Origin: an uncultured delta proteobacterium
Lineage (GTDB): Bacteria; Desulfobacterota; Syntrophobacteria; Syntrophobacterales; Syntrophobacteraceae
DNA: 64,000 bases
Assembly (NCBI GenBank): GCA_963808625.1
Contig: CAWEHK010000041.1
Coordinates: forward strand, 32,001-96,000
Reading direction: 5' to 3'
In this document: positions 26,438 to 43,836 of the stretch, one piece after another
Layout: every line of letters begins with the position of its first letter
Numbering within the stretch: the stretch's first letter is position 1
Position numbers and translations under genes: made by a program
Notes under the pieces: model-generated
The model's input: only the letters and a program-made list of their open reading frames with translations
Told to the model about the DNA's origin: nothing
The model's database searches: none

Positions 26438-26968
26438 CTATTTTTCAAGCACCACGAGCTCTTCTACCGGTTTCCGATGCGAAGTCTGATTGCGGTGGAG
26501 CGGGTGGCCGACGGCAACGACAGCCATGAGCTCAAGGCGCTCCGGGAGCTCGAGAAGACTGAGGACCCTCTCCTTGTTTTTCAAGATCTCCCCGATCCAG
26601 GTTGCTCCGAGGCCATGGGCATGCACCGCCAGCAAGAGGTTCTGCAGACAGGCTCCGATGGCCTGACAGTCCTTGACGCGATCATAAGAACTATCCTGGT
26701 CCAGGAAGACCGGAACCAGGACCGCAGCATTCTTGAGGACCGCAGAGTAACGGGTCAGGCGCCCCAGTTCTTCCTTCAGACGCTGGTCCCAAATAATGGC
26801 AAAGCGCCAGGGCTGGTTGTTCAATCCCGAGGGGGCCCACGATGCAGCTTGCAGAATTTCCATGATCAAACGGCGTTCTACCGGGGCTTCGGTAAAATTC
26901 CTCACACTGCGCCGCTCGTAGATGGTCCTAATCACCTCCAAACCGGCTCTTTCCGGGTCCATGAGCAC
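26438..26968 (-). CDS. Nitroreductase family protein
   Basis: RRSVR, APSGLNNQPW, QNLLLAVHAHGLG. Confidence 0.93.
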   Translation of the reverse strand: MLMDPERAGLEVIRTIYERRSVRNFTEAPVERRLIMEILQAASWAPSGLNNQPWRFAIIWDQRLKEELGRLTRYSAVLKNAAVLVPVFLDQDSSYDRVKDCQAIGACLQNLLLAVHAHGLGATWIGEILKNKERVLSLLELPERLELMAVVAVGHPLHRNQTSHRKPVEELVVLEK

Positions 26969-27317: not shown

Positions 27318-27672
27318 ATGATGGTCCAATTGTCACCGGAAAAAGACCTGCTTCGGGAGGGCACTATTTTCCTTGCACCTGGAGGGCGTCGTGGCCATGA
27401 GCACGGTGCCGGGGATTCGCCGGGCGCTCCTTGGCGCAGCGAGGAAGAGCGAGGTTAAAGAAGTTCGCCTCGATTTTTCCCGGGTCACGTTACTGGATAC
27501 CGCTGGTGTTGCCATGCTCGTGGAAATCTGGAGAGAGCTTGCCCGCAGGGGTGGAACACTCCGGCTGACCGGTCTGAGCGAAAATGCCAGGAGGCTGATT
27601 CAGTTGGCCGGGCTTGATCAGATCTTCAATCTGCGGGATGATCCGGAGAGGAGGATTCCTTATGGCTCATAA
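27318..27672 (+). CDS. STAS domain protein, MlaB-like (frameshift near 27372)
   Basis: LDFSRVTLLDTAG, LIQLAGL; first gene of the Mla-type operon. Confidence 0.75.
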
Positions 27673-28475
27673 GGATTTGATCGAGGTGTGCGGCCTGAAC
27701 AGCTATTATAGCGGGCGGCAGGTCCTTTTCGATATCCGTTTTGGGATCCCTGACACGCAGATTACGGTAATCATGGGAGTGAGCGGTTGTGGAAAAACCA
27801 CGCTCCTCAGGCATCTGATCGGGCTGAAGCCCACTTGGCCAGGCCAGATAATGGTTGATGGTCAGGACATGGGGAGGTTCAACGAGGAGGAAATGCAGAG
27901 CTATCGGCGCCGCATTGGCGTGCTGTTTCAAAGCGGTGCGCTTTTTAACTCGATGACGGTGTCGGACAACATTGCCGTTCCCCTGAAAGTCCATACTCGA
28001 CTGGCCAACGAGACCATCCGTATCATGGCGCTGATCAAGCTCAACCTTTTGGGATTGGCGGAGTTCGGCGCCTACATGCCATCCCAGTTGAGCGGCGGGA
28101 TGCGCAAGCGTGCCGGTTTGGCGCGGGCGTTGGCGATGGACCCCGAAATCCTCTTTGTGGATGAGCCCTCTTCAGGTTTGGACCCGATCACGGCTGCCGG
28201 GTTGGACCGCCTGATTCCGGAGCTGCGCGACACACTGGGAATGACCATCATTGTGGTTACGCATGAACTGGAGAGTGCTTTTCGAATTGCCGACCGACTG
28301 ATTGTGATGGATGGCGGGCGCATTCTTGCAGCGGGAAGCCCCGAAGCGATCCGGGCAAGCCAAGACGAGCGGGTGCTGCAGTTTCTCGAGAGAAAGGCCG
28401 ACACTGCGGAAGTCAATACCGACGGGCTATTTGTCTCGCATCAGGGGAAGCGAAACAAGCAGGAGTGCCTCATGA
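27662..28475 (+). CDS. mlaF: ABC transporter ATP-binding protein MlaF (3' end apparently frameshifted into mlaE)
   Basis: GVSGCGKT, FQSGALF, LSGGMRKRAGLARA, DEPSSGLDP. Confidence 0.9.
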
Positions 28476-29257
28476 CCCGTTTGGTTCAATTGCTGGGCGC
28501 CTTCGTTCTGGATCAGCTTGCATCCCTGGGTCGCATGGGGCTCTTTTTGGTTTATATGATCAGAGGCACCGTCAAGCCGCCGGGGAAGTTCTGGCCGGTC
28601 GTAAAGCAAATCCACTTCATCGGCACGAAGTCGTTTTTTGTGATCGGATTTACTGCGGCCTTCACCGGGATGGTGCTTGGTTTGCAGGGTTATTACACGC
28701 TCTCTAAATTCGGTTCCGAGGGTTTATTGGGATCAGGGGTGGCCCTCAGTTTGATCCGCGAGCTGGGACCGGTGCTCACAGCGCTGATGGTTACGGGCCG
28801 GGCGGGTTCAGCCATGTGTGCCGAGATCGGGATCATGCGGATTGACGAACAAATCGATGCGCTCGAATGCATGGCTATCGACCCTTATGCCTACCTGATT
28901 ACCCCGAAACTCCTTGCCGGCCTGGTCTGTCTTCCCCTCCTCACGGCCTATTGTGATGTCGTTGGGATCTATGGCGGCTATGTGATCGGGGTTAACCTCC
29001 TGGGGGTGAGCCCGGGAGCATACCTCTCAGGGATTGAAAGCAGCGTGGTCTGGAAAGACGTTTACATGGGCATCATAAAATCGCTCTGTTTTGCGGTCTT
29101 GATGATTTGGATCTGTACCTACAAGGGCTTTTACGCCGGGATTGACGAGGGCAATTTCGGTCCCGAGCAAGTAAGCCGGGCGACCACCGATGCCGTGGTG
29201 CTCTCATCGGTGTCCATTCTCGCGGGCGATTATGTGGTCACCTCCATTTTGCTGTAG
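28472..29257 (+). CDS. mlaE: ABC transporter permease MlaE
   Basis: Own AGGAG RBS and ATG; RELGPVLTALMVTGRAGS, EQIDAL. Confidence 0.92.
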   Translation: MTRLVQLLGAFVLDQLASLGRMGLFLVYMIRGTVKPPGKFWPVVKQIHFIGTKSFFVIGFTAAFTGMVLGLQGYYTLSKFGSEGLLGSGVALSLIRELGPVLTALMVTGRAGSAMCAEIGIMRIDEQIDALECMAIDPYAYLITPKLLAGLVCLPLLTAYCDVVGIYGGYVIGVNLLGVSPGAYLSGIESSVVWKDVYMGIIKSLCFAVLMIWICTYKGFYAGIDEGNFGPEQVSRATTDAVVLSSVSILAGDYVVTSILL

Positions 29258-29332
29258 CGTTCATTATTGATTGATATTATGCGACATTCGGTTCGGAGAG
29301 CATCATTTTCTTTAGCGGCAGGGGACGACCAC

Positions 29333-29788
29333 ATGGAAAAAAGGGGACTTGAGTTAGGTGTAGGGCTGTTCTTAATAATTGGGCTTGCATGCCTGGGTTA
29401 CCTATCTTTTAAACTGGGTGATATCCGTCTTTGGGGTAGTTCCGACTACGACGTTCACGCCAGGTTTTCAAATGTCGCCGGGTTGAAGGACAAGGCGGCG
29501 GTGACGATGGCGGGAGTGACCATCGGTCAGGTTAAGGACATCAATTGGTCGATGGCCAGGCCCTCCTGACCGTCAGCATCAACAAAGACGTTCGTCTCGA
29601 AGAGGATGTTATTGCCAGCATCAAGACCATGGGCATCATCGGGGACAAGTATGTCTCGGTCAGTCGCGGGAGCTTCCGAAGAGTACATCAAACCGGGAGG
29701 GATGATAAAGGATACGCAACCGCCTTTGGACCTGGAAAACCTGGTGAGCAAGTTCGTCTTTGGAAATGCTGAAAAATCGAAGCAGTAA
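29333..29788 (+). CDS. mlaD: MCE-domain protein MlaD (two frameshifts)
   Basis: VGLF, ARFSNVAGLK, GVTIGQV, GIIGDKY, DLENLVSKF. Confidence 0.88.
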
Positions 29789-29939: not shown

Positions 29940-30196
29940 CTACTTCTTCATTTTCTTCATGAAAATGTCTTCGCACTTCTGTGCGGCGGCCTCAGCCCGG
30001 CGAGCGGCTGCATCGGCTTTCATCGCGGCAGCTTCAGCTTGCTTGGCATAATTTGCACAGGACTGCTCTACCTGCTGGCCTTGTCCAGAGCTGCCTGACA
30101 GAGTTCGGTGCATTTCTTGGCATCTTGCGTACAAGCACAACCAACCACCGTGAAAGCGAAAGCGACCAGCAACAGAACTGACATTATTCTCTTCAT
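29940..30196 (-). CDS. Lpp/OprI-like alanine-zipper lipoprotein (frameshift near 30075)
   Basis: GAGGAA RBS, signal peptide with VVGC lipobox, Ala-rich heptads, C-terminus MKKMKK; adjacent to an L,D-transpeptidase. Confidence 0.75.
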
Positions 30197-30462
30197 AACT
30201 CTTTCCTCCTTCGAAAACCTGACTTGACTCTTGTGTTGATGAAATTTGCCTATCTGCTCATAAAACCTGTTGGATATGTTTGCTTCCCACCTCCTCCCTT
30301 TTTCAATGAATTCACTGCAAAAGCGCTTGGGAATTGCCTTCGCTATCCCGCACCGTTGGGAAAAACAACATAAGGCTACTCTAGAAAATCCTAAAATCAA
30401 GAAGTTTTTTAGCCTGCACCGAACGCGATATTGCGCTTTCGACACGGCATCGCATAGCACTA

Positions 30463-31416
30463 CTACTGCATAATATCAACCAATTTCAGGGACGTTTCGT
30501 CGGCTGCCAACCGGGAGACATTGGTGGGCACCCCGTTTTGGAGCTTTACCGCCATAAGGTATTTCTTTTGGTCGATGTATTTCGCCAGAGGGTGCTGCGC
30601 CAGCTTACCAAGAGCATACTGAACGTAGTCGGGGATTCGTCGGTACACGTCAGGATGGGACTCGACAAAGATCTGTCCGTTCTTTTGTCCGAACTTGACC
30701 GGTTCATAGATGATCTCCAACTTGGTTCCCATCGGCACCTGCGGATAGAGGAGCTTTATGTGCTCCGGGTAGCATCGAATGCACCCATGGCTAACCAGAC
30801 GTCCGACCCCCCAGGGCATCGCCGTGCCATGAACGCCATAAGCACCCGCAGAGAATTTCATGACATACTCACCGAGAGGATTCTCCGGCCCGGGAGGCAT
30901 CGAAGCCATGCCATATTTCTCTTGCAGGGAAGCGGGGATATACCAGGTCGGATTGGCTCTCTTATCATTGATAAAGAAGGTGCCGAGCGGGCTCTCCCAG
31001 CCTTCGTCGCCGATCCCGATGGGATAAGTCTGGACCGTGGAAGAGGCCTTGTCAAAAAAGTACAGCCTGAGTTCCGGTATGTTGATAACGAGCTGCTGGT
31101 GCTGACTGGGAGGCAGGACCCAGAAGGTGGGGATAGAAATTTTCTTGTCGGTTGGGGGGACCCACGCGTCCATGCGAGGGAAGAGAAGATCCATCTCATT
31201 ATAGCCCAGACCGTGCTTCCTGGCGATATCGAGCATGCTTTCCCGGGCGCCGATCTTGTACCAGGTCGGCGTCCCAATGACGGTTAACTCGGGGACCCGA
31301 TAGGGATAGCGTTGAACCGTGGCATGGTATTCTTCATCACTACCCTGGGCTTGGGATGCGGCGAATGAGCAGCATATTAAAAGCAGAGAAACGATTGCCA
31401 GGATTCTTCTCTTCAT
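30463..31416 (-). CDS. L,D-transpeptidase, ErfK/YbiS/YcfS type
   Basis: Signal peptide, INIPELRLY, YPIGIG, PPGPENPLG, HGT...SHGCIR. Confidence 0.93.
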   Translation of the reverse strand: MKRRILAIVSLLLICCSFAASQAQGSDEEYHATVQRYPYRVPELTVIGTPTWYKIGARESMLDIARKHGLGYNEMDLLFPRMDAWVPPTDKKISIPTFWVLPPSQHQQLVINIPELRLYFFDKASSTVQTYPIGIGDEGWESPLGTFFINDKRANPTWYIPASLQEKYGMASMPPGPENPLGEYVMKFSAGAYGVHGTAMPWGVGRLVSHGCIRCYPEHIKLLYPQVPMGTKLEIIYEPVKFGQKNGQIFVESHPDVYRRIPDYVQYALGKLAQHPLAKYIDQKKYLMAVKLQNGVPTNVSRLAADETSLKLVDIMQ

Positions 31417-31630
31417 AAATCAATCATCCCAAAATGTTTATTTTTGACTTTGAATCACCAACATAGCCGTGGTGTGAAGTAAAATAAAGGTTCTACAGGT
31501 GTAGATCAAGGTTTTTTTAAAAAGGAAACCATTTAAAACCTTTCTAATGCTTGCCTTGGCAAGATCGCTCTTGACTGATTCCGACATATCGGTCTACAAA
31601 TCAGCTTCTCTTTGCATAGTTCAATGAATT

Positions 31631-32779
31631 TTGGAGGTGAATGAAATGAGTAAACCAAGGATTGATGGACGACCGGCAAATGTTAAAGCGCGCTTTCCCA
31701 ACAGTATTGTTCCCTTGTTCAATGGAAGGGCCCTGCTGGCAGCCGCCAGGAAGCACAAGGGGATGATCATGGCCTGTAACATCCGGTGCCGGTTGCCGGT
31801 GGAGGGCATCGTGCTTGCTTCCATGGCGGCCAAGGCCCCGGTTATGTATGAAATTGCCAAGTCTGAGCTGGGATATACCGAGTTCACCCCGGCAACATTT
31901 GTCGAGTTCATCATTCAGGAAAACGAGCGACTGGGCAATACGGACGTCCCCTTTGGCGTTCATGCGGACCACATCACCGTCAAGAAACCGGAGGAAGTGG
32001 AAAGCGTCGCGGCCCTGATTGCCAAGCAACTGGAAGCAGGGTTCACGTCGTTTGCCATCGATGCTTCGCACATGGAAAATGACAAGAACCTGGCTGCCAC
32101 ATCCGAACTGGCGAGGCCTATCGTGCGGGAAGGCTTGGGATTAGAGGTCGAGCTGGGAGAGATTGGAGCAAAGAGCGGAAGCTCCGAGGGCTTTACGCAG
32201 CCGGAAGAGGCGGAATGGTTCATTGGTGAGCTGGACAAGAACAAGATTCGCCCAAATCTGCTTGCCATCAATAACGGGTCGATCCACGGGACCTATTTCG
32301 GCGCCGCCCATGAGGGCATTCAGCTCGATCTGACGGCGAAGATCTGGGAGTCCATTCAACCCTGGTCCGTGGACGTCGCTCAGCACGGGATCACGGGGAC
32401 TTCCTTGGAAAAGATCTCGTCCTTCATCGAGTACGGAATTCGCAAAGGGAATGTGGGAACGTTGTGGCAGAACATCTCCTTTGGTATGGCCATGAACGAA
32501 AGCGGCAATGCGCTTACCACTGAGAATCGTGAGTACATCAAACGCCCCTATCGCGGCATCCCCGATGAGCTGTGGCAGGAAATGTGGGCCTGGGCGGTGG
32601 AGACCAAGAATACCGGCGGCAACATTAAAAGCGCCAACCAGACTTTTGCTGCAAAAATGAATGCCATCCCGCTGCCATACAAGAAGCGAATCACCGACCA
32701 TGCTTACGAGGAAGCTCTAAGGCTGTTCGAAGCCACCCATTCCATCGGGTTGGCCGAGAGTGTGTGGGATTTTGTCTAA
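31631..32779 (+). CDS. fba: Class II fructose-bisphosphate aldolase (start probably 31640 or 31646)
   Basis: VHADH, IDASH, EVELGEIG, GSIHG, AQHGITG. Confidence 0.88.
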   Translation: MEVNEMSKPRIDGRPANVKARFPNSIVPLFNGRALLAAARKHKGMIMACNIRCRLPVEGIVLASMAAKAPVMYEIAKSELGYTEFTPATFVEFIIQENERLGNTDVPFGVHADHITVKKPEEVESVAALIAKQLEAGFTSFAIDASHMENDKNLAATSELARPIVREGLGLEVELGEIGAKSGSSEGFTQPEEAEWFIGELDKNKIRPNLLAINNGSIHGTYFGAAHEGIQLDLTAKIWESIQPWSVDVAQHGITGTSLEKISSFIEYGIRKGNVGTLWQNISFGMAMNESGNALTTENREYIKRPYRGIPDELWQEMWAWAVETKNTGGNIKSANQTFAAKMNAIPLPYKKRITDHAYEEALRLFEATHSIGLAESVWDFV

Positions 32780-32832
32780 CAGCATCATCAGACAAGAATT
32801 CCATACCCCATTTCCATGTCGATCGACTTAAC

Positions 32833-32862
32833 GGGAATGACAGGCAACAGCCTGTCATTCCC
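32833..32862. terminator. Hairpin between convergent fba and the cysteine synthase fusion
   Basis: GGGAATGACAGGC-AACA-GCCTGTCATTCCC, perfect 13-bp stem. Confidence 0.65.
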
Positions 32863-32921
32863 ATTGACACAGCTATTCCAGATAATTGCTCCGTGGCTTC
32901 CCGGTCAGCCGGTGGTGCGGG

Positions 32922-35249
32922 TCACAGGCGTTCCCATCGGGTTCCCGTCGTGGTGTCAAACACCCTGAGTCTGCGCTTTGATAATTCTTCCCTGAGGCGG
33001 TCGGCTTCCGCCCATTGTTTTGCCTTCCTCGCATCCTCGCGCCTTTGGATGAGAGTCGCTTCCTCAGGGGTGCAGAGGCTGGAGCTCCATATCGAAAACA
33101 CCCATAAGAGCATTCAACTTCTTAAAAACATCCAGAATGTGCTGTCGCTGAGCCTCGCTAAAGTCTCCCCGATCGAGGATCGGGTTTGTCTGGCGAACAA
33201 ATTTGAAGAGCGCGGCCAGGGCCGGAGGCATATTCAGATCATCGGCCATGGCATCAAGGAAGCTCTGTTCGAGAGCGTAAGTCATCTCCGGGATGACCCG
33301 GTTCTCCTGTTCATTGCTTCGGGCATGGTGGACGCGGCTGATGAATTCCTTCAGGCGTTCGTAGCCGCGTTTGGCATTGAGTATGTTCTCGGAGGTGATA
33401 TGGATGGGTTTCCGGTAGTGGGTGTTCAGCAGCCAGTAACGGATCTCCATGGCACTGATACCCGGCGGCAAGGAATTCTCTGACGGAGAGGTTCTCATCG
33501 AGATGGCCTTCGTTCCTTCTCCTGCTGTGAAGACCAGATCCGTTCGCAGAGCATCCAAACATTGGCAAAGGGCTTCCCGGTTATCGCCTCGCCGATCTCG
33601 CGCAGATTTTCCAGGTGGGGGAAGAGGAAGTCCACGCTGCTGACGTGAATGTCGATGGGCGATCCCAGGTCGTGAATGGCAACCGAGGCGGCAGCGATGT
33701 GCCACGTGGGGAGGACGTTTCCCCAGTCCGTTTTCAAAAAGACCCCCTGTTTGAGCTCGGCTAACGTGGATCGCTTGAGCAGAGTAAAATCCCGTGGATT
33801 GAGCTTTTCATAGGCCTCCAGATCCACGGTCTTGCCGAGATGGATTTTCTTGGGGTCGACCCGGGAAAGGACCCCATAGTTGCTGCTCTTGGAAAGATCG
33901 AAGTAAACGGAGCGCAGCTTCTCGTAGGCGAGGCCTTTACTCATCAGAGACCTGGTGAATTGGATAATGGTATCAATATGTTCCGTGGTCCGGGGACAGG
34001 AATAGGTGCGCTGGATCCCAATCTGATCGAGGTCGCTGAAGAAATGCTCCAGTTGCTGCTGGGCATAGGCAGCGTGTTCCATGCCCGCCGTTCGTGATTC
34101 CTGGATGGCGCTGCTGTCGAGATCGGGCGCCAGGATTACCTCGTTTACGGAAAAGTTCTTCACCCTGAGGAAACGGGTGAGAAGATCGGCCAGCAGAAAG
34201 CGACGCAATTCCTGCAATGAAAGAAGCTTGTCCAGGGGAGGGCCGGTCACGAAAATCCGGACTTTGCCCTCCTGGGCCGGTTTGAAGTCGATCTTTTCCC
34301 GCCGCAGCAGATCATAAAAGCGAAAGTCCGGCTCAAGCAGGGTGGTGAAGAGGTTGGTGCTGAGATAACGATCGCCGCCGTCGGGGAGAATGGCTACGAT
34401 GATCCCCTCTTCACGTTCCATCGCCAGCTTCACGGCAGCGGCCATGGCCGCCCCTGAGCTCATCCCGGCAAAGATCCCTTCTTCTCTCGCCAGACGCCGG
34501 GCCATCTCGAACGCTTCGTCGTCCTTCACGTTGATGATGCCGTCCAGGGCATGGCGGTCAAAGATGCCGGGGACGTAAGATTCCTTCATGTTTTTTAGAC
34601 CCTGGATCTTGTGTGCCGGGTAAGGTTCGACACCGAACACCTGGATCGCCGGGTCCCGCTCCTTCATCGCCTCGAGGATGCCCATGGCGGTGCCCGTGGT
34701 GCCAAGCGTGACGACCACGGCGTTGACTTTGCCTTCCGTTTGCTCGTAGATCTCCGGACCGGTCTTCTCGTGATGAGCGGCGGGGTTCGCCGGACTGTTG
34801 AACTGGTCGGGCATGAAATAAAGTTCCGGGTTTTCGCGCACCAGGTTGTAGACTTCTTCGATGGCGCCGTCCGTACCCTTGCTGCCCGGGGTCAGCAATA
34901 ATTCCGCACCGAAAGCCTTGAGGATTTTCTGCCGTTCCAGGCTCGCGGTTTCAGGCATTGCCAGGACGATTCGGTATCCCTTCACCGCCGCAACCATCGC
35001 CAGGCCGATGCCGGTATTGCCACTGGTGGCCTCAATGATGACCTTATTGGGCGTGAGCAATGCCTCTCGTTCCGCTGTCTCGATGAGGGACAGGGCCGGC
35101 CGGTCTTTGACGGACCCGCCGGGGTTCTTCGCTTCCCATTTGACGTAAAGGGTGACTCGCGGATTGGGATTCATGCGATTGATACGAATCAGCGGGGTAT
35201 TGCCGATGGCTTCCAAAACATTGGAGAAGACGTTTTTCATGGTGACCAC
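32922..35249 (-). CDS. Cysteine synthase (CysK/CysM) fused to a degenerate cysteinyl-tRNA synthetase-like module (frameshifts near 33530, 33460 and 33070)
   Basis: N-terminal NPGGSVKDR (PLP Lys), EATSGNTG, GTTGT; C-terminal CysRS-like blocks PRTTEHI, VYFD, RDFTL, WHI, FPH.EN, HYRKP, DDLN and ADRLREEL; fusion junction lies inside one uninterrupted ORF. Confidence 0.85.
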
Positions 35250-35391
35250 ATTTCCTGCTCAGAATTGCACCTCGTCAACCAACCTCAACCAGCATCCACT
35301 TTATAGGCAGTCCCACGGTTCGGTGTCAAAGCCTTTCCTCGTTCATGACATTTTGTAGTAGAATAAATGGGCTGGCTGCATGCGGTGGGTA

Positions 35392-35527
35392 GGGGGCGTC
35401 CAAAAATAAAAGGCCTTCTTTTACCACGAAGAACACGAAGGACACGAAGTGATTTCTTCGTGCTCTTTGTGTTCTTCGTGGTTCGAAAAAGGGCTGGAAT
35501 GAGTGCAAGTTGTTTTTCGACAGTCTC
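35392..35527. mobile_element. Degenerate MITE-like element carrying an ACCACGAAG palindrome
   Basis: Ends GGGGGCGTCCAAAAAT / GTTTTTCGACAGTCTC-TTA resemble the TIRs at 2501/2622; internal ACCACGAAGAACACGAAG...CTTTGTGTTCTTCGTGGT. Confidence 0.55.
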
Positions 35528-35645
35528 TTAGCGTTGAAGAGTTTGCGCTTCTTGGGCTCAGGCGTATTCTCAGCTTTCACTGAGTCTCTACGGTGGAGTC
35601 AAGATCGGAGGGTATCAAGGCCCGGGGGCATAGCCATTTCATATT

Positions 35646-36212
35646 ATGGAGGACGTGTTGGAATTCCGTTTCTGTCCTTACTGTGGAAGGCCTTTGACAC
35701 ACCGTGCGGGCAAAGAACAGGCCCGTCTTCACTGTGAAACGTGCGGGGAAACGTTCTATCGGAACCCAACGGTTGGGGTGGCGGTGGTGATTGTGGAGGA
35801 GGGGAGGGTGCTTTTGGTCCGCCGCCTCGGTGTCTATGAAGGAATGTGGTGCATCCCCTGCGGCCATGTGGAATGGAACGAAGAGGTCCGCGCGGCGGCG
35901 CACCGCGAGTTCCGCGAGGAGACGGGATTGGAGGTTGCGGTTGGGCCGGTTTTTGCGGTCTATTCGAATTTTCATGATGAACATCGGCAGACGGTGGGTG
36001 TCTGGTTCTGGGGAAAGATCAGAGGAGGCGAACTGCGGCCAGGTTCCGACGCGAGTGAAGCCAGGTTCTTCAACATTCATGCTCTTCCGGAGGCCATGGC
36101 GTTCCCGACCGACCGACTGGTCTGCGAGAAATTGGAGCAGGGCATGAGAACCGGGGGCCTCTCCAGTTGGCTGGCTTCCCACCCGGATCGTGAATGGAAG
36201 TCCAGGGCATGA
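35646..36212 (+). CDS. NUDIX hydrolase with an N-terminal zinc ribbon
   Basis: FCPYCG...CETCG, YRNP, Nudix box GHVEWNE...REFREETG. Confidence 0.92.
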   Translation: MEDVLEFRFCPYCGRPLTHRAGKEQARLHCETCGETFYRNPTVGVAVVIVEEGRVLLVRRLGVYEGMWCIPCGHVEWNEEVRAAAHREFREETGLEVAVGPVFAVYSNFHDEHRQTVGVWFWGKIRGGELRPGSDASEARFFNIHALPEAMAFPTDRLVCEKLEQGMRTGGLSSWLASHPDREWKSRA

Positions 36213-36305
36213 CTTTTGCGATTGACCCATCCGGAAATCTTTGCTAAAGGTTTCACGAATTCCAGGAACTGCCGGTAACTGTCATTTTTAACGAGGAGTT
36301 GTGTT

Positions 36306-36515
36306 ATGTCACCATTCGGCGAATTCTTGTGTGTAGAGCTCAAACGCAGTGTCGCCAGCGCGTTGCCTCAGGACATTCCGTGGTACGATCCCAGCCACGC
36401 GGTTTTCTTCGGAGCGCTTTACGGCGCTCTGGGCGTGATCGGGCTGGGCCTCTTGGCCGCGGTTTTGATCACGTTCAAACGGCTGAAACAGGGGGACGAA
36501 GGGGGCCACCACTAG
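36306..36515 (+). CDS. Small hypothetical membrane protein
   Basis: GAGGAG RBS, one long hydrophobic helix. Confidence 0.65.
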   Translation: MSPFGEFLCVELKRSVASALPQDIPWYDPSHAVFFGALYGALGVIGLGLLAAVLITFKRLKQGDEGGHH

Positions 36516-36635
36516 TCCAGCCGGGCGGAAGTTTCTGGTCAGTTCGGCCACCATTCAACCGGATTGTGTAGGGGCGACCAGCCGGTCGCCCCTACCAGCC
36601 GGAACCAATTAGTGATTTCCGCCCACGCGTACTAG
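36511..36635. mobile_element. CTAG-flanked MITE-like element carrying a GTAG-type REP
   Basis: ACTAG on both sides, GGGCGGAA/TTCCGCCC inverted repeats, internal GTAGGGGCGACC-AGCC-GGTCGCCCCTAC (36568-36595). Confidence 0.6.
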
Positions 36636-36868
36636 CCGTCTCGTCACCTGCACCATCTCCCTTCAGGGGAGGAACATCTTCATCTTTCCAGCATATTGGA
36701 CATCTGGTACTGGGCGCTCGATCCAGGGTGAGGCTCCCCAGCTTATGGTGAGCCGGGAGCGCCGGGTACCAGGGCGCCCCTTCCGCTCATCCTTTGACAG
36801 CAATTCCACACCGGTTTATGCCCTCATGTAAGGGCGGACCGCCACCCTCTGTGGCGAGGAGACACCAA

Positions 36869-38233
36869 GTGGACGCGAACACTTTTCGAGAGTATGACAT
36901 CCGCGGTATTGTGAACGAAGAAATCCTGGACGAGGATGTTTTGGTCCTGGGTAAAGCTTTCGGCACCTACATGGCTCGGCAACAAAAGAAGTATGTGGTA
37001 ATAGGGAGGGACTGCCGGCCCAGTTCAGACCGTTATCGGGACCTGCTGCTCGAGGGGATGCTGACGACCGGCCTCGATGTCGTTGATGTTGGCATGTGCC
37101 CGACGCCCGTCTTCTATTTTGCCCTGCGGCATCTGAACCGGGAGGGAGGGATGATGATTACCGCAAGCCACAATCCTCCCGAGTATAACGGCTTTAAAAT
37201 CTGCAACGGTTTCGATACAATCTCCGGAAGCGAAATCCAGAAATTTCGCACCCTCATGGAACGAGGTTCATTTGAGTCGGGGGTTGGTCAGGTCGCACCT
37301 TATGACATCGTGACTCCCTACATCGACTTTATTGTCGGCAATATCAGCCTGAAGCGCCGCTTGCGAGTCGGCGTTGATGCCGGCAATGCGACCGCCGGGC
37401 CGGTGATTTTGCCCATTCTTCAGAGACTGGGCTGCGAGGTGTTCCCGCTTTACTGTGAGGTGGATGGCACCTTTCCCAATCACGAACCGGACCCGACGGT
37501 GCTCGAAAATCTGAGAGACTTGAGCGCGCTGGTCAAGAGGGAAAATCTGGACGTGGGCGTCGCCTACGATGGGGACAGCGACCGGCTGGGAGTGGTCGAC
37601 CATCGTGGAGAGCCCGTTTTCGGCGACAAGTTGATGATTATCTTCGCTCGCGAAATCCTTTCGCGACGCCCCGGGGTGACTTTCATTTCGGAGGTGAAGT
37701 GTTCGCAAACCCTTTATGATGACATAAGAAAACATGGCGGGAAGGCGATCATGTGGCGCACGGGCCACTCCCTGATGAAAGCGAAGTTGAAAGAAGAGGA
37801 TGCAGCGCTTGCCGGAGAGATGAGCGGTCACATGTTCTTCAAAGATCGTTTTCCTGGCTTTGACGACGGGCTGTATGCTTCCTGCCGGCTGTTTGAAATC
37901 CTTGCCAGTACCGGAAAGACCATACCCGAACTGCTCGAGGGAGTACCCGCCACGTATACCACGCCTGAGATCAGGGTACCGTGCCCCGACGCGATCAAGT
38001 TTGACGTGGTGGAGAGAGCGAAATTGCTGTTTCGATCCAGGAACTTGGATATCATCGAAGTCGACGGCGCGCGGATCGTTTTTGAAGATGGCTGGGGGCT
38101 GGTGCGCGCCTCCAACACGCAGCCCGTCCTGGTGCTGCGCTATGAAGCCGGCACTCCCGAGCGCCTGAACGAGATCCGTGATTTGGTGGAAGGAACCATC
38201 GAAGAGGCAAAAGGAGAGGTCGCAGCAAGATAA
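36869..38233 (+). CDS. Phosphomannomutase/phosphoglucomutase
   Basis: FREYDIRG, TASHNP, DGDSDR, GEMSGH, RASNTQP; GAGGAG RBS before GTG 36869. Confidence 0.95.
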   Translation: MDANTFREYDIRGIVNEEILDEDVLVLGKAFGTYMARQQKKYVVIGRDCRPSSDRYRDLLLEGMLTTGLDVVDVGMCPTPVFYFALRHLNREGGMMITASHNPPEYNGFKICNGFDTISGSEIQKFRTLMERGSFESGVGQVAPYDIVTPYIDFIVGNISLKRRLRVGVDAGNATAGPVILPILQRLGCEVFPLYCEVDGTFPNHEPDPTVLENLRDLSALVKRENLDVGVAYDGDSDRLGVVDHRGEPVFGDKLMIIFAREILSRRPGVTFISEVKCSQTLYDDIRKHGGKAIMWRTGHSLMKAKLKEEDAALAGEMSGHMFFKDRFPGFDDGLYASCRLFEILASTGKTIPELLEGVPATYTTPEIRVPCPDAIKFDVVERAKLLFRSRNLDIIEVDGARIVFEDGWGLVRASNTQPVLVLRYEAGTPERLNEIRDLVEGTIEEAKGEVAAR

Positions 38234-41027: not shown

Positions 41028-41176
41028 GCGCCTTAGAGCCGATGCAGGGCCTTGCGTGCGCTCGGCGGAGGAAGGAAGCTCTTTTCGCCTGGAGCTATGG
41101 TGGCTTGCCCGTGAGCGCAGCCCTGTAACGGATGTTGATTCACTCAATGCGCCTGAATGAAGGTGAGGAAAACGTC

Positions 41177-43836
41177 ATGCAAAATATTTCTGAATCCCTG
41201 AAAAGACAGCGCGAACAGGTCCTGACCGACAGCAGCGAAGAGATGCTGAGTCGTCACACCAGCCTTCTCGAAATCGCGGTCATTTCTCTCTACAACCGCA
41301 TGGTCAACCGCCTGAACCTGGATGCGGAGCAGTTCCGCTCGAGCGGCGCGGTCTTGGCTGCCGGCGCTCTGGGGCGCGGCTTGCTCGGCCCCAATCAGGC
41401 CGTCCCTCTGCTCTTGCTGAGGGCGGAGTCCTCTCCCTGGAAAGAGGAGTGGATGGACGAGATTGTTCCCCTTTGGTAGAAGCGGGTTGGATTGTTGACG
41501 TTGCAGCAAGGCGCCATCGATTCGCTGCTCGATCGAGCCATAAGGATTTCGGCTTCTTCCTCGATCTTTTGGAGACCCGGTACATCTCCGGAAACCGCCA
41601 GTTGGCGGAGCAACTGGAAAAGGCCCTCGAAACCTTCGTTGAGAGACGCCAGAACGACCTTCTGAGCGCTCTTTTCGAGTCGGTGCAAGCGCGCCAGGCG
41701 CGTCTCGAAGATCCGAAAAGCTGGATGGAACCGGACCTTGATCACAATCCCGGAGGGCTTTCGGAAATCACGGCGATCCGCGCTGCCTGCCGCATTGCCT
41801 CGAACGTCCGCAATCTTGAGGATGCCATTTTTGGTGGATATCTGACACGACAGGAAGTGGACCTGCTGCAACAGGCTGAAAAAACCTTTGCCCGCCTTTT
41901 GAACCTGGTTCGCACCATGAACGGTGCTTCCGCAAGCACTCTTGGCTTCAACGAACAGGAAATTCTTGCGGATAAACTGGGTTATCAGGCGCGTTCCGGA
42001 TTTTTGCCGGTGGAAACCTTCATGCAGCACATTAACCAATTGTTTCACGGGGTGTTATGTGTTTCGCAGGAGTTCTGGGAGCGTTTGCTGGAGAGCCGTG
42101 AAGATGACCGGGGAGGGGAGGACAAGGCCTCGCAGGCTGGTGGAGACCGGAGTCATGGTGCGCGCGGGGAGAATCCACATCCAGACCGATCGCTATTCCC
42201 CCACAGCCGGCCAAATTGTCCACCTGTTTGCCCTGGCGGCAAGGCATGGGATGGGCCTGGCCAATGTCACCAGGCAGTGGATCCGGCATCATCGTAATGC
42301 CCTGGATACGGCTGCCGGCGAACAAACCGTGCGGGAAGAACTTTTCGCCCTGCTTCGAGCGGATGCGGCTGGACCTGCACTTTGTGCGCAAGTTTTACAA
42401 CCAGGGACTCATGCTCTCGCTCGTCCCCGAGCTGTCTGCCATCCATGGTCTGGTTCAGCACGACGCTTTCCACCTCTATCCGGTGCAGGAACATCATTTT
42501 CGAACGCTTGCCGAATTAAAAAAGATCTTCCGCGGGGACTACGCCCAGGCGGAACCGGAGCTGACGCAAATGGCGCAGGATGTTGAAGATCCGACCATGC
42601 TTTATCTGGCCGGACTGGTGCACGATATGGGCAAGAGCTCGGGGCGGGGGCATGCCGCTCACGGAGGAGCGATGATTCCCGCTGTTGCCCGACGCCTGGG
42701 GTTGAATGCCGAGGAATCCGAGTTTACTCCAGTTCCTGGTGGCTCAGCACCTGCTGCTCATGGACAACGCCTCGATGAGGGATCTGGGCGATGACGAGAT
42801 GGTGGCCAACTGTGCCTCCGCTGATCGGGACACCCGAGCGACTGGACCTCCTCGCCCTGTTGAGCCTTGCCGACATGGTTGCCACCGGCCCCAAGGGCTA
42901 TCAGAAGTGGCGGGATACCCCGGTGATTGCACTCTCCAGGCGCATCCGCCATCTTCTGGAAAAGGGAGAACCCAGCCGCAGGCCATCACCGAGCGCATTG
43001 CTCATATCAGAACCCAGGTTGCCAGAGAAGTCGCGGATGTAATGGAACCGGCGGAACTGGAAGACTATTTCGCCAACCTTGCTCCCCGATATCTGCTTTC
43101 CATGCTGCCCGGCACGATCGCCAGGCACCTGCGCATGGAGCGGCAGTTGCGCCAGTCCGGGGAGCCTTTGGCATGGAGGTGGCTAAGCGAAGGCACGGCC
43201 GAGATTACCCTTTTGAGCCAGGAGACGAGCGGCCTGGTATCCCGTTCTGCCGGCATCCTTACCCTTCACGACATGGACATTCGAGGCGCTCAGGTCTTCG
43301 CCATGAACAGCGGCGTACTTATCCTGATCTTTCAGTGTCGCTATGCGGAAACACGTGCCGGGGAACCGGATTGGGATGCCGTGAGGGCGACCTGAAGCGA
43401 TTGCTGGAGGGGAAGATAGGCGTTAGCTACCGGATTGCGGTCCATGCTGCCAGCCGCAGGTACGGTCAGCCGGCTCCTGCGAAGGACGCCCAGTCAGGTC
43501 CTGATTGATAACGAGTCGAACGCCCGGTACACCATCCTCGAAGTGTACACTCTCGACCGCGTGGGCTTGCTCTATACCATCACACGCACCCTCTTTGAAC
43601 TGCAGGTCCGGATATTTGTTGCCAAGATCACGACGAAAGTGGACCAGGTGGCCGACGTCTTCTATGTCCGAACCAGCCAGGGAGAAAAGATCACGGACCC
43701 GGAGCGCATAGAGGAAATACGGAATGCTCTGCGGTTCTGGCTGGATGGGCCGGACGAGCGAACCGGAGGAAGAGGAGAATTGACATGGAAGGCGTCTTAC
43801 TGGAGCGGGATGGACCGCTTGCGTGCCTGGTTTTGA
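41177..43836 (+). CDS. glnD: GlnD-like protein (degenerate NTase domain, HD domain, two ACT domains); at least five frameshifts, true stop uncertain
   Basis: G.LGRG, ETRYISG, LADKLGY, QHDAFHLY, HDMGK, TILEVYTLDRVGLL, DVFYV. Confidence 0.8.

Follow-up and report, generated by a model that had tools for sequence, protein, structure and literature searches.

What can a cysteinyl-tRNA synthetase (CysRS) still do once its catalytic motifs are gone, and why would it be joined to an enzyme that makes cysteine? This question is raised by a gene on the minus strand of a 64,000-nucleotide stretch of DNA, hereafter the window, from the metagenome-assembled genome (MAG) of an uncultured delta proteobacterium of the family Syntrophobacteraceae (GCA_963808625.1, contig CAWEHK010000041.1, positions 32,001 to 96,000). 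The gene, at 32922..35240, would be described as cysK-pseudo-cysS: an intact cysteine synthase continues in one polypeptide into a CysRS-like body without HIGH, without KMSKS, and with its anticodon-binding end preserved. We favor the reading, to which we give a probability of roughly 0.45, that the dead CysRS body is a non-catalytic module that docks tRNA-Cys and ties the activity of an auxiliary cysteine synthase to the status of tRNA-Cys.

In the deposited sequence the gene is spread over three minus-strand open reading frames (ORFs) in three registers (33495-35249, 584 aa; 33064-33705, 213 aa; 32922-33113, 63 aa), which together correspond to about 771 codons if three extra bases are left out of the count. 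The initial annotation, made from the letters of the window alone, had set its extent at 32922..35249. This is the same gene, but translation probably starts at the ATG at 35240, because the N-termini of homologues read MKNVFSNVLEA..., and the frame as called, beginning with the GTG at 35249, would then be three codons too long. Pfam profiles recognized PALP (E 1.4e-71, aa 12-290) and tRNA-synt_1e (E 2.1e-41, aa 322-569) in the ORFs and, for the C-terminal parts of CysRS, DALR_2 (E 1.5e-9) and CysS_C (E 8.3e-9). Together with the alignments, these matches agree with the architecture first proposed and confirm, as a domain prediction, that a CysK/CysM-type cysteine synthase is joined directly to a complete CysRS body. 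The synthase domain, which is pyridoxal phosphate (PLP)-dependent and of fold type II, lies at 34380..35216 (PALP; TIGR01136); it is followed by the CysRS-like Rossmann and CP part at 33543..34286 (tRNA-synt_1e; residue mapping), the DALR_2 helical domain at 33094..33261 (PF09190), and the anticodon-binding domain (LIQRREDARKAKQWAEAD...) at 32934..33071 (PF23493), all on the minus strand. The junction between the two halves is short and conserved (LEPDFRF), with hardly any linker.

The cysteine synthase half appears to be in working order. The family model TIGR01136 (cysKM) scored 375.7 bits on the window translation (cut-off 344.15) and 381.9 bits on the orthologue P0003, which places both in this family; the equivalog models stayed just under their cut-offs (cysM, 368.6 of 394.2; cysK, 347.9 of 350.95), and this half is intermediate between the two. 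The PLP lysine (GGSVKDR, codon at 35106-35108, minus strand), TSGNTG, GTTGT, and SSG are all present in the window translation, in agreement with the intact PLP lysine and substrate loop reported at the outset. The catalytic motifs are invariant across 67 aligned fusions (K45, T72-G77, G180-T184, S261-G263); we take their roles to be those of the PLP lysine, the Asn/substrate loop, the phosphate loop, and the SSG serine. The modelled CysK domain of the orthologue superposes on solved O-acetylserine sulfhydrylase chains with target-normalised TM scores of 0.84-0.96 and root-mean-square deviations of 1.5-2.2 Å (3.2 Å in one case). The first approximately 300 residues are therefore best described as an active-looking cysteine synthase of the O-acetylserine-sulfhydrylase type, for which activity is predicted.

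The synthetase half presents a different picture. Its residues were mapped onto Escherichia coli CysRS (1li5_A) by way of P0003. This orthologue matches the first 584 residues of the window protein with 89% identity, and its module is colinear with 1li5 over residues 3-459 (phmmer E 4e-58). Among the zinc ligands, which we take to be C28, C209, H234, and E238 (the numbering was checked on 1li5), only H234 is present; C28 is replaced by T, C209 by A, and E238 by L. HIGH (H37-I-G-H40) has become S-L-Q-E, T68 has become P, and H235 has become L, while W205 and H206 are retained. At the position of KMSKS (K266-S270), P0003 has K-D-E-R-H and the window has K-E-E-G-H, read across the first frame break. 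Every motif replacement quoted in the initial annotation was found again in this comparison, including the loss of three of the four zinc ligands. Its weakest point had been KMSKS, whose region overlaps an indel; the loss can be regarded as independent of the indels, since these are most likely assembly errors (see below) and since 119 homologues free of them also lack the motif. The protein thus carries neither the HIGH and KMSKS signature of a class I CysRS nor its zinc site, and the cysS model TIGR00435 gave 267.6 bits for P0003 and 279.3 for P0022, below its cut-off of 340. Because HIGH and KMSKS are missing and a single zinc ligand is left, the CysRS body is predicted to be unable to charge tRNA.

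The losses are not uniform. When 12 canonical CysRS were compared with the 119 closest fused homologues, 43 of 89 canonical-invariant positions were kept, 15 had been swapped for another residue with a conservation of at least 90%, and 31 were variable, the last set including all of the HIGH and KMSKS positions. Many of the conserved swaps are grouped around the old pocket (in canonical alignment numbering, C29 to T, Y34 to D, T69 to P, D73 to S, C209 to A, and H235 to L). Since HIGH and KMSKS vary while 15 positions have been replaced in a conserved manner, the ATP site is, to judge from these residues, abandoned, and the former amino-acid pocket is rebuilt and held. The fused module also has a conserved insertion of 4 residues in the CP domain (...DFTLLKRSTLAELKQG..., within 33543..34286, minus strand), which the genome's own CysRS lacks. 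The CP loop 470-480 is highly conserved and is among the few low-confidence segments of the P0003 model, which would fit a loop that becomes ordered on a partner.

Conserved replacements of this kind suggest a selected new pocket, and they argue for an alternative in which the CysRS body does not bind tRNA at all. It would then be an allosteric or structural appendage, either because a small molecule such as cysteine, O-acetylserine, or a nucleotide occupies the rebuilt site, as HisZ senses histidine for HisG, or because the body shapes the oligomer of the synthase. The retention of W205, H206, and H234 is in line with this proposal, as are three related fusions, L058, L092, and L109, which keep C28, C209, and H234 (E238 is A or T) yet have lost HIGH and KMSKS; sensing of cysteine is plausible in these three because the zinc ligands C28, C209, and H234 are kept. 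In the window clade, however, three of the four ligands are gone, and cysteine could not be held via zinc as it is in CysRS. Moreover, an appendage gives no reason why precisely the four residues that contact G34, in a C-terminal domain remote from the pocket, should be at least 98% conserved. We consider this alternative unlikely.

It is the anticodon end that points to tRNA. According to a text passage and Table S2 of PMC12684709, the CysRS residues that contact the anticodon base G34 in 1u0b are R423, R427, W432, and D436. The window protein has the equivalents of all four. Among the 119 homologues their conservation is at least 98%, and they are conserved across all classes of fusion described below, with R427 replaced by K in 2 of 20 readable rows and W432 by F or Y in some. 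The C-terminal domain also keeps all seven canonical invariants, so that the preserved anticodon-binding end of the initial annotation holds down to the residues that touch G34. The AlphaFold2 model of P0003 has a pLDDT of 87.1 and a pTM of 0.68, and its module resembles the CysRS chain of the tRNA complex 1u0b_B (TM 0.81) and 8qhp_A (TM 0.89). The overall fold and the anticodon-binding domain with its G34 contacts are thus those of a CysRS.

The synthetase half is also under selection. In four pairs of relatives with a synonymous distance (dS) below 1, the module had a ratio of nonsynonymous to synonymous changes (dN/dS) of 0.085-0.19 and the CysK half one of 0.043-0.115, and mean identity to P0003 among the 119 homologues was 64% for the module and 84% for the CysK half. 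The module evolves faster than the CysK half, yet these ratios indicate that it is clearly maintained by purifying selection, as a synthetase homologue without catalytic motifs. The initial annotation had allowed that close homologues might retain the motifs and that this copy might be under relaxed selection; this does not hold, because the motif losses recur in the close homologues, which are themselves under purifying selection.

A further question is whether the gene is intact in this strain. The indels seen earlier proved, in an alignment with 11 orthologous genes (ten of 771-844 aa and, in G002, a shorter 626-aa frame), to be exactly three window-specific insertions of one base, each missing from all 11. 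The first, at 33511..33514, shifts the frame in the KMSKS-equivalent loop; the second, at 33457..33458, falls between ...AAGY and SAMEIRYW...; the third, at 33066..33072, follows ...MELQPL and restores the first frame. When the window was compared by BLAST with its syntenic counterpart contig in G007, they fell at 33514, 33457, and 33072. Contigs from four public metagenome runs were also compared over 32850-33750; they come from related strains rather than from the source sample (the best run contains 0.27 of the sampled words, and none is clearly the source), and no listed piece covers the whole stretch. Each contig that covers an insertion site has one base fewer there (X1 and X3 at 33511/33513 and 33457; X2 at 33066).

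Three frameshifts within the last 450 bp could instead mark a real, recent pseudogene. The extra bases do stand in the deposited sequence, none of them lies in a long homopolymer, and the public contigs used for comparison are those of related strains. However, the corrected frame has no in-frame stop, and conservation runs codon by codon once the three bases are set aside. In the same window, glnD (41132-43836, plus strand) falls into about four ORFs because of 12 indels of 1-2 bases that are specific to the window, whereas all five same-genus orthologues are intact (859-946 aa), which indicates an indel-rich assembly; many isolated 1-base gaps relative to the G007 contig are scattered along the window. 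The essential gene metG of the same genome (L003, G000:C45, approximately 2550-2733) likewise changes frame after about residue 400, with its anticodon-binding and tRNA-binding C-terminal parts running on in a different frame, probably through an assembly error. Given that the insertions are missing from relatives and from the covering contigs, and that glnD and metG show breaks of the same kind, they are very probably assembly errors, the pseudogene is very improbable, and the organism's own gene is most likely intact, with about 771 codons. Elsewhere in the window, a 547-aa ORF (27614-29569, plus strand) joins an MlaF-like ABC ATPase to an MlaE permease, and of MlaD no more than the beginning is present, in the ORF that follows; this fusion and truncation may be artefacts too, because 1-base gaps relative to the G007 contig lie nearby (27207, 27364, 28422, 29543, 29666).

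What surrounds the fusion in the genome bears on how its synthetase half could be used. The set of genes that the initial annotation had singled out for checking (cysS, cysE, SepRS, an unusual tRNA-Cys) was searched for. The genome has a separate canonical CysRS with the cysteine, HIGH, GWHIEC, PHHENE, and KMSKS all present, two stand-alone CysK genes (443-447 bits), a CysE-like gene that scores below its cut-off, and a single ordinary tRNA-Cys (anticodon GCA, A37, U73, encoded CCA). No SepRS was found in this MAG, which is 84.6% complete, and no match above the family cut-off was found in 31 genomes (30 relatives with the fusion or its CysK part, plus this one); the weak matches to the model, of 18-27 bits, are of a kind also given by 13 of 14 control genomes.

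These results weigh on the proposal that the CysRS body holds tRNA-Cys while the CysK half carries out a β-replacement on a group attached to the tRNA. The target could be an aminoacyl group that is made into cysteine, a function like that of SepCysS, or a nucleophile on the tRNA itself. Aminoacyl-tRNAs have a free α-amino group that PLP enzymes such as SepCysS and SelA can use, and the fusion combines an intact PLP site, almost no linker, and a docking body shaped for tRNA. The initial annotation had entertained sulfhydration on the tRNA as one role. Against it stand the absence of SepRS above the cut-off in these genomes, the presence of a canonical CysRS with a single ordinary tRNA-Cys, and the nature of the PLP half, which is a fold-type-II CysK and not of the SepCysS type; furthermore, we know of no source of misacylated tRNA-Cys here. 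Such chemistry is therefore quite unlikely.

How widespread is this design, and did the synthetase half always look like this? The 119 close homologues are 751-836 aa long and 71-90% identical, all contain both Pfam families, and their named hosts are Syntrophobacteraceae, Desulforhabdus, Desulfoferrobacter, and similar organisms. Cultured strains are represented by Syntrophobacter fumaroxidans MPOB (WP_011697351.1) and Desulforhabdus amnigena (WP_281793488.1). A DNA query found the fusion in 6 of 7 same-genus genomes and in all 11 genomes from the family. Of 301 genomes sampled evenly across the phylum, 120 matched the module within an open frame of at least 600 aa (in one more genome, G309, the frame is of 440 aa), and the fusion is thus a common design in sulfate-reducer-type bacteria. 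At least one further CysRS match is carried by 116 of these 120 genomes, and three of the remaining four are 62-79% complete; among the matches listed, the second CysRS occupies frames of 475-561 aa with 30-34% identity. A search for related loci matched 12 of 80 over more than 700 residues and otherwise returned mostly plain CysK genes.

Among cluster representatives and loci retrieved beyond the window clade, the fused modules differ by degrees in how much of the synthetase they have kept. All motifs are present in class A, represented by P0124, a CysK-CysRS fusion that is named 'cysteine--tRNA ligase [Nanoarchaeota archaeon]'. Class B (P0121, L086, L100, L102, L103) has HLG(N/V) and KMSRS, with H235 also replaced by N in L086. 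Class C (L058, L092, L109, P0136) keeps C28, C209, and H234 and has lost HIGH and KMSKS, with E238 replaced by A or T at three loci; also in this class, L087 has lost KMSKS (it keeps HIGL and has T for E238), and P0122 and P0134 (both with S for C209) have lost HIGH as well as KMSKS. In class D, which comprises the window clade and, separately, P0125, P0126, and P0128, the ATP and zinc sites are both lost. In the three genomes tested (G325-G327), class B or C fusions coexist with a canonical CysRS.

Two further loci, L059 (6001-8289) and L118 (5998-8272), have cysK (296 aa) and, 3-4 nt further on, cysS (459-464 aa) as separate genes. This cysS has all canonical motifs and the same CP insertion, and it is the sole strong CysRS match in these small MAGs; by record title only, the hosts are a Methanosarcinales archaeon and an uncultured archaeon. 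P0124, L059, and L118 share the gene or domain order of the window gene; P0124 differs from the other two in that its insertion is of similar length and different sequence. Unlike the window clade, all three keep C28, HIGN, WH(L/I)EC, PHH(E/Q)NE, and KMSKS, and in L059 and L118 the fused-type cysS is the only strong CysRS of the MAG, whereas the window clade has a second one.

From these forms, we infer a scenario in which a cysK-cysS gene pair would have fused into one gene; with a second CysRS present, the fused copy would have lost its ATP motifs first and its zinc site afterwards, while anticodon recognition was kept. In a quick tree of 34 CysRS and module sequences, the window clade is well supported and set off by a long stem, and the genomes' canonical CysRS group together in a separate clade. 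Because its branches are long and 13 of its 31 forks are open, this tree does not decide between a single and a multiple origin of the fused modules, between one and two full decays, or between orders of loss.

The fully canonical pairs and the canonical fusion also lend some sense to another role raised in the initial annotation, a scaffold for the canonical CysRS: the dead body would dock the charging enzyme and hand it newly made cysteine. Coupled synthesis and charging was probably the ancestral advantage, since such canonical arrangements exist, and the best sequence match in the PDB, 8qhp, is titled as a CysRS homodimer. However, CysRS of the E. coli type is a monomer, the two would be competitors for the same surfaces of the tRNA, and the anticodon contacts kept in the dead copy would be left unexplained. 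A complex prediction for the module (residues 305-777 in the alignment) with the canonical CysRS of the same relative genome scored 0.00 and 0.00 against a mark of 0.32, and nothing is drawn from it. The idea has gained no support and is hardly credible for the present-day protein.

Among the three roles originally considered, gating by tRNA-Cys remains the best fit, with the conserved G34 contacts as indirect evidence in its favor, and the other two are without support. Docking of tRNA-Cys is the most economical function on which selection could act, because the CysRS fold and the anticodon contacts are common to every class of fusion. The docking body would couple the extra cysteine synthase to the state or the amount of tRNA-Cys; for example, the synthase may be switched on when uncharged tRNA-Cys accumulates. 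This logic would resemble that of the HisRS-like domain of GCN2, or of HisZ acting on HisG. Both the binding of tRNA and any effect on synthase activity are read here from conservation and fold. In a bolder form of the hypothesis, which we regard as somewhat improbable, the fused dead CysRS is a true tRNA-Cys sensor that gates cysteine synthesis by translational demand or, bolder still, the CysK half acts on a tRNA-borne substrate.

Several observations weigh against tRNA-Cys docking and gating. The conserved Arg, Asp, and Trp residues could serve the stability of the domain rather than RNA, and the short anticodon domain as a whole evolves faster than the rest (dN/dS 0.20-0.50 in the four pairs). 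The pocket for the acceptor end is apparently rebuilt as well (T68 to P, Y34 to D, and D73 to S, all conserved); therefore, the 3' end of the tRNA may no longer enter, and another ligand could bind. A gated third CysK is unexplained beside the two other CysK genes of the genome. One same-genus genome that is 96% complete, G003, gave a weak match to the CysK part and no fused gene by DNA query. No conserved neighbors and no sulfur or tRNA genes were found near the fusion among 28 flanking ORFs of eight loci and 20 ORFs of the window, and an Rfam search of 30000-38000 (E up to 1) detected no T-box, riboswitch, or tRNA-like leader, the only matches being at chance level (a hairpin at 35423-35482, and 36648-36733).

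Compared with known systems, the module is closest to canonical CysRS (TIGR00435; 1li5, 1u0b), with which it shares colinear full-length homology, the fold, and the DALR and C-terminal anticodon domains. It differs in that HIGH, KMSKS, C28, C209, E238, and T68 are replaced, and in that it is fused to CysK, has the 4-residue CP insertion, falls below the cysS cut-off, and occurs beside a separate intact cysS. In function, the nearest parallels would be HisZ, which regulates HisG, and the HisRS-like domain of GCN2, which binds uncharged tRNA; both are synthetase homologues without the motifs that control the supply of the same amino acid, and the fusion likewise has such a homologue attached to amino-acid supply. 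In contrast to these class II HisRS relatives, the module is a class I CysRS, is covalently joined to the last enzyme of the pathway, and would bind tRNA or another ligand only by prediction. SepRS/SepCysS would be functionally similar, as a PLP enzyme acting with a partner that binds tRNA-Cys, but no SepRS match reached the cut-off in the 31 genomes and the PLP half of the fusion is a fold-type-II CysK, not of the SepCysS type; in the reviews on these systems, term searches gave no mention of a fusion with CysK.

Other CysRS-derived paralogues exist alongside a normal CysRS, and one of them, CysRS*, is said to go back to Mukai et al. in 2017. In the part of a 2022 review that deals with the subject, CysRS* of the Desulfobacterales and MshC are the only CysRS paralogues named, and CysRS* is described there as lacking the anticodon-binding domain and still able to aminoacylate (PMC9437257). 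The window protein is the reverse case, for it keeps DALR_2 and CysS_C and loses catalysis, and it does not correspond to CysRS* as that part of the review describes it. MshC is an ATP-dependent ligase, and its model gave 98.5 bits on the fusion, against a cut-off of 485. A further paralogue with the opposite pattern was noticed in a genome of the same genus (L135, 2609-3901, minus strand, G007:C192). This 430-aa protein keeps C28, HVGN, and KMSKS but is without the anticodon-binding domain; where a CysRS would read GWHIEC and HHENE, it reads SWNIQD and HHDYN. There is no tRNA gene within 7 kb of it. The window's own genome did not yield this paralogue, and G015 has a similar second match.

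The remaining features of the locus are of local interest. A putative sigma-70-type promoter (TTGACA-18 nt-TATAAA, 35300..35329, minus strand) was recognized by eye, and a transcript from it would begin with a leader of some 50 nt; a promoter scan, whose rule demands T as the final base, did not report it. Downstream of the fusion there is a class-II aldolase gene, within the family only. The hairpin at 35423-35482, in the space that separates the fusion gene from a divergent NUDIX gene, is a long but imperfect palindrome with CACGAAG... repeats; an 82%-alike copy occurs elsewhere on the G007 contig (12258-12364), both strands weakly match a miRNA hairpin model, and it may be a small intergenic repeat element. 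A YkuD L,D-transpeptidase (30463-31416) and a nitroreductase (26438-26968), both on the minus strand, lie near the fusion in the window, and the same families recur next to fusions that are only distantly related, YkuD in L087 and nitroreductase in L100 and L102; either chance or a trace of former synteny may account for this.

The fusion is at present hidden behind ordinary names. It is called 'cysteine synthase' in NCBI and 'Cysteine--tRNA ligase' or 'cysteinyl-tRNA synthetase' in UniRef and JGI, and the CysRS-type names would wrongly credit genomes with an extra CysRS. In the portions of the searched literature that were available, including PMC5424206, PMC8762117, PMC9437257, PMC5388404, PMC2330236, and PMC2922099, there is no description of a CysK-CysRS fusion, and a literature search by accession returned no papers.

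Dead synthetase paralogues that regulate metabolism are, to our knowledge, few, with HisZ and the GCN2 domain as the textbook cases. Here, a CysRS-derived pseudo-enzyme is welded to a cysteine-making enzyme and kept under selection, and it is present in about four in ten of the sampled genomes of a major anaerobic phylum. The gradation from gene pair to fusion, to loss of the ATP motifs, and to loss of the zinc site would document in nature the steps by which a synthetase turns into a pseudo-enzyme. If the CysK half acts on a docked tRNA-Cys substrate, this would be tRNA-linked sulfur chemistry that is independent of SepRS. If the module binds tRNA-Cys, the fusion would provide a direct physical link, in bacteria, from tRNA status to amino-acid synthesis. 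And if it is indeed a tRNA-Cys sensor, these organisms would have a one-polypeptide bacterial counterpart of the logic of GCN2, in which an enzyme is switched by the tRNA of its own product.

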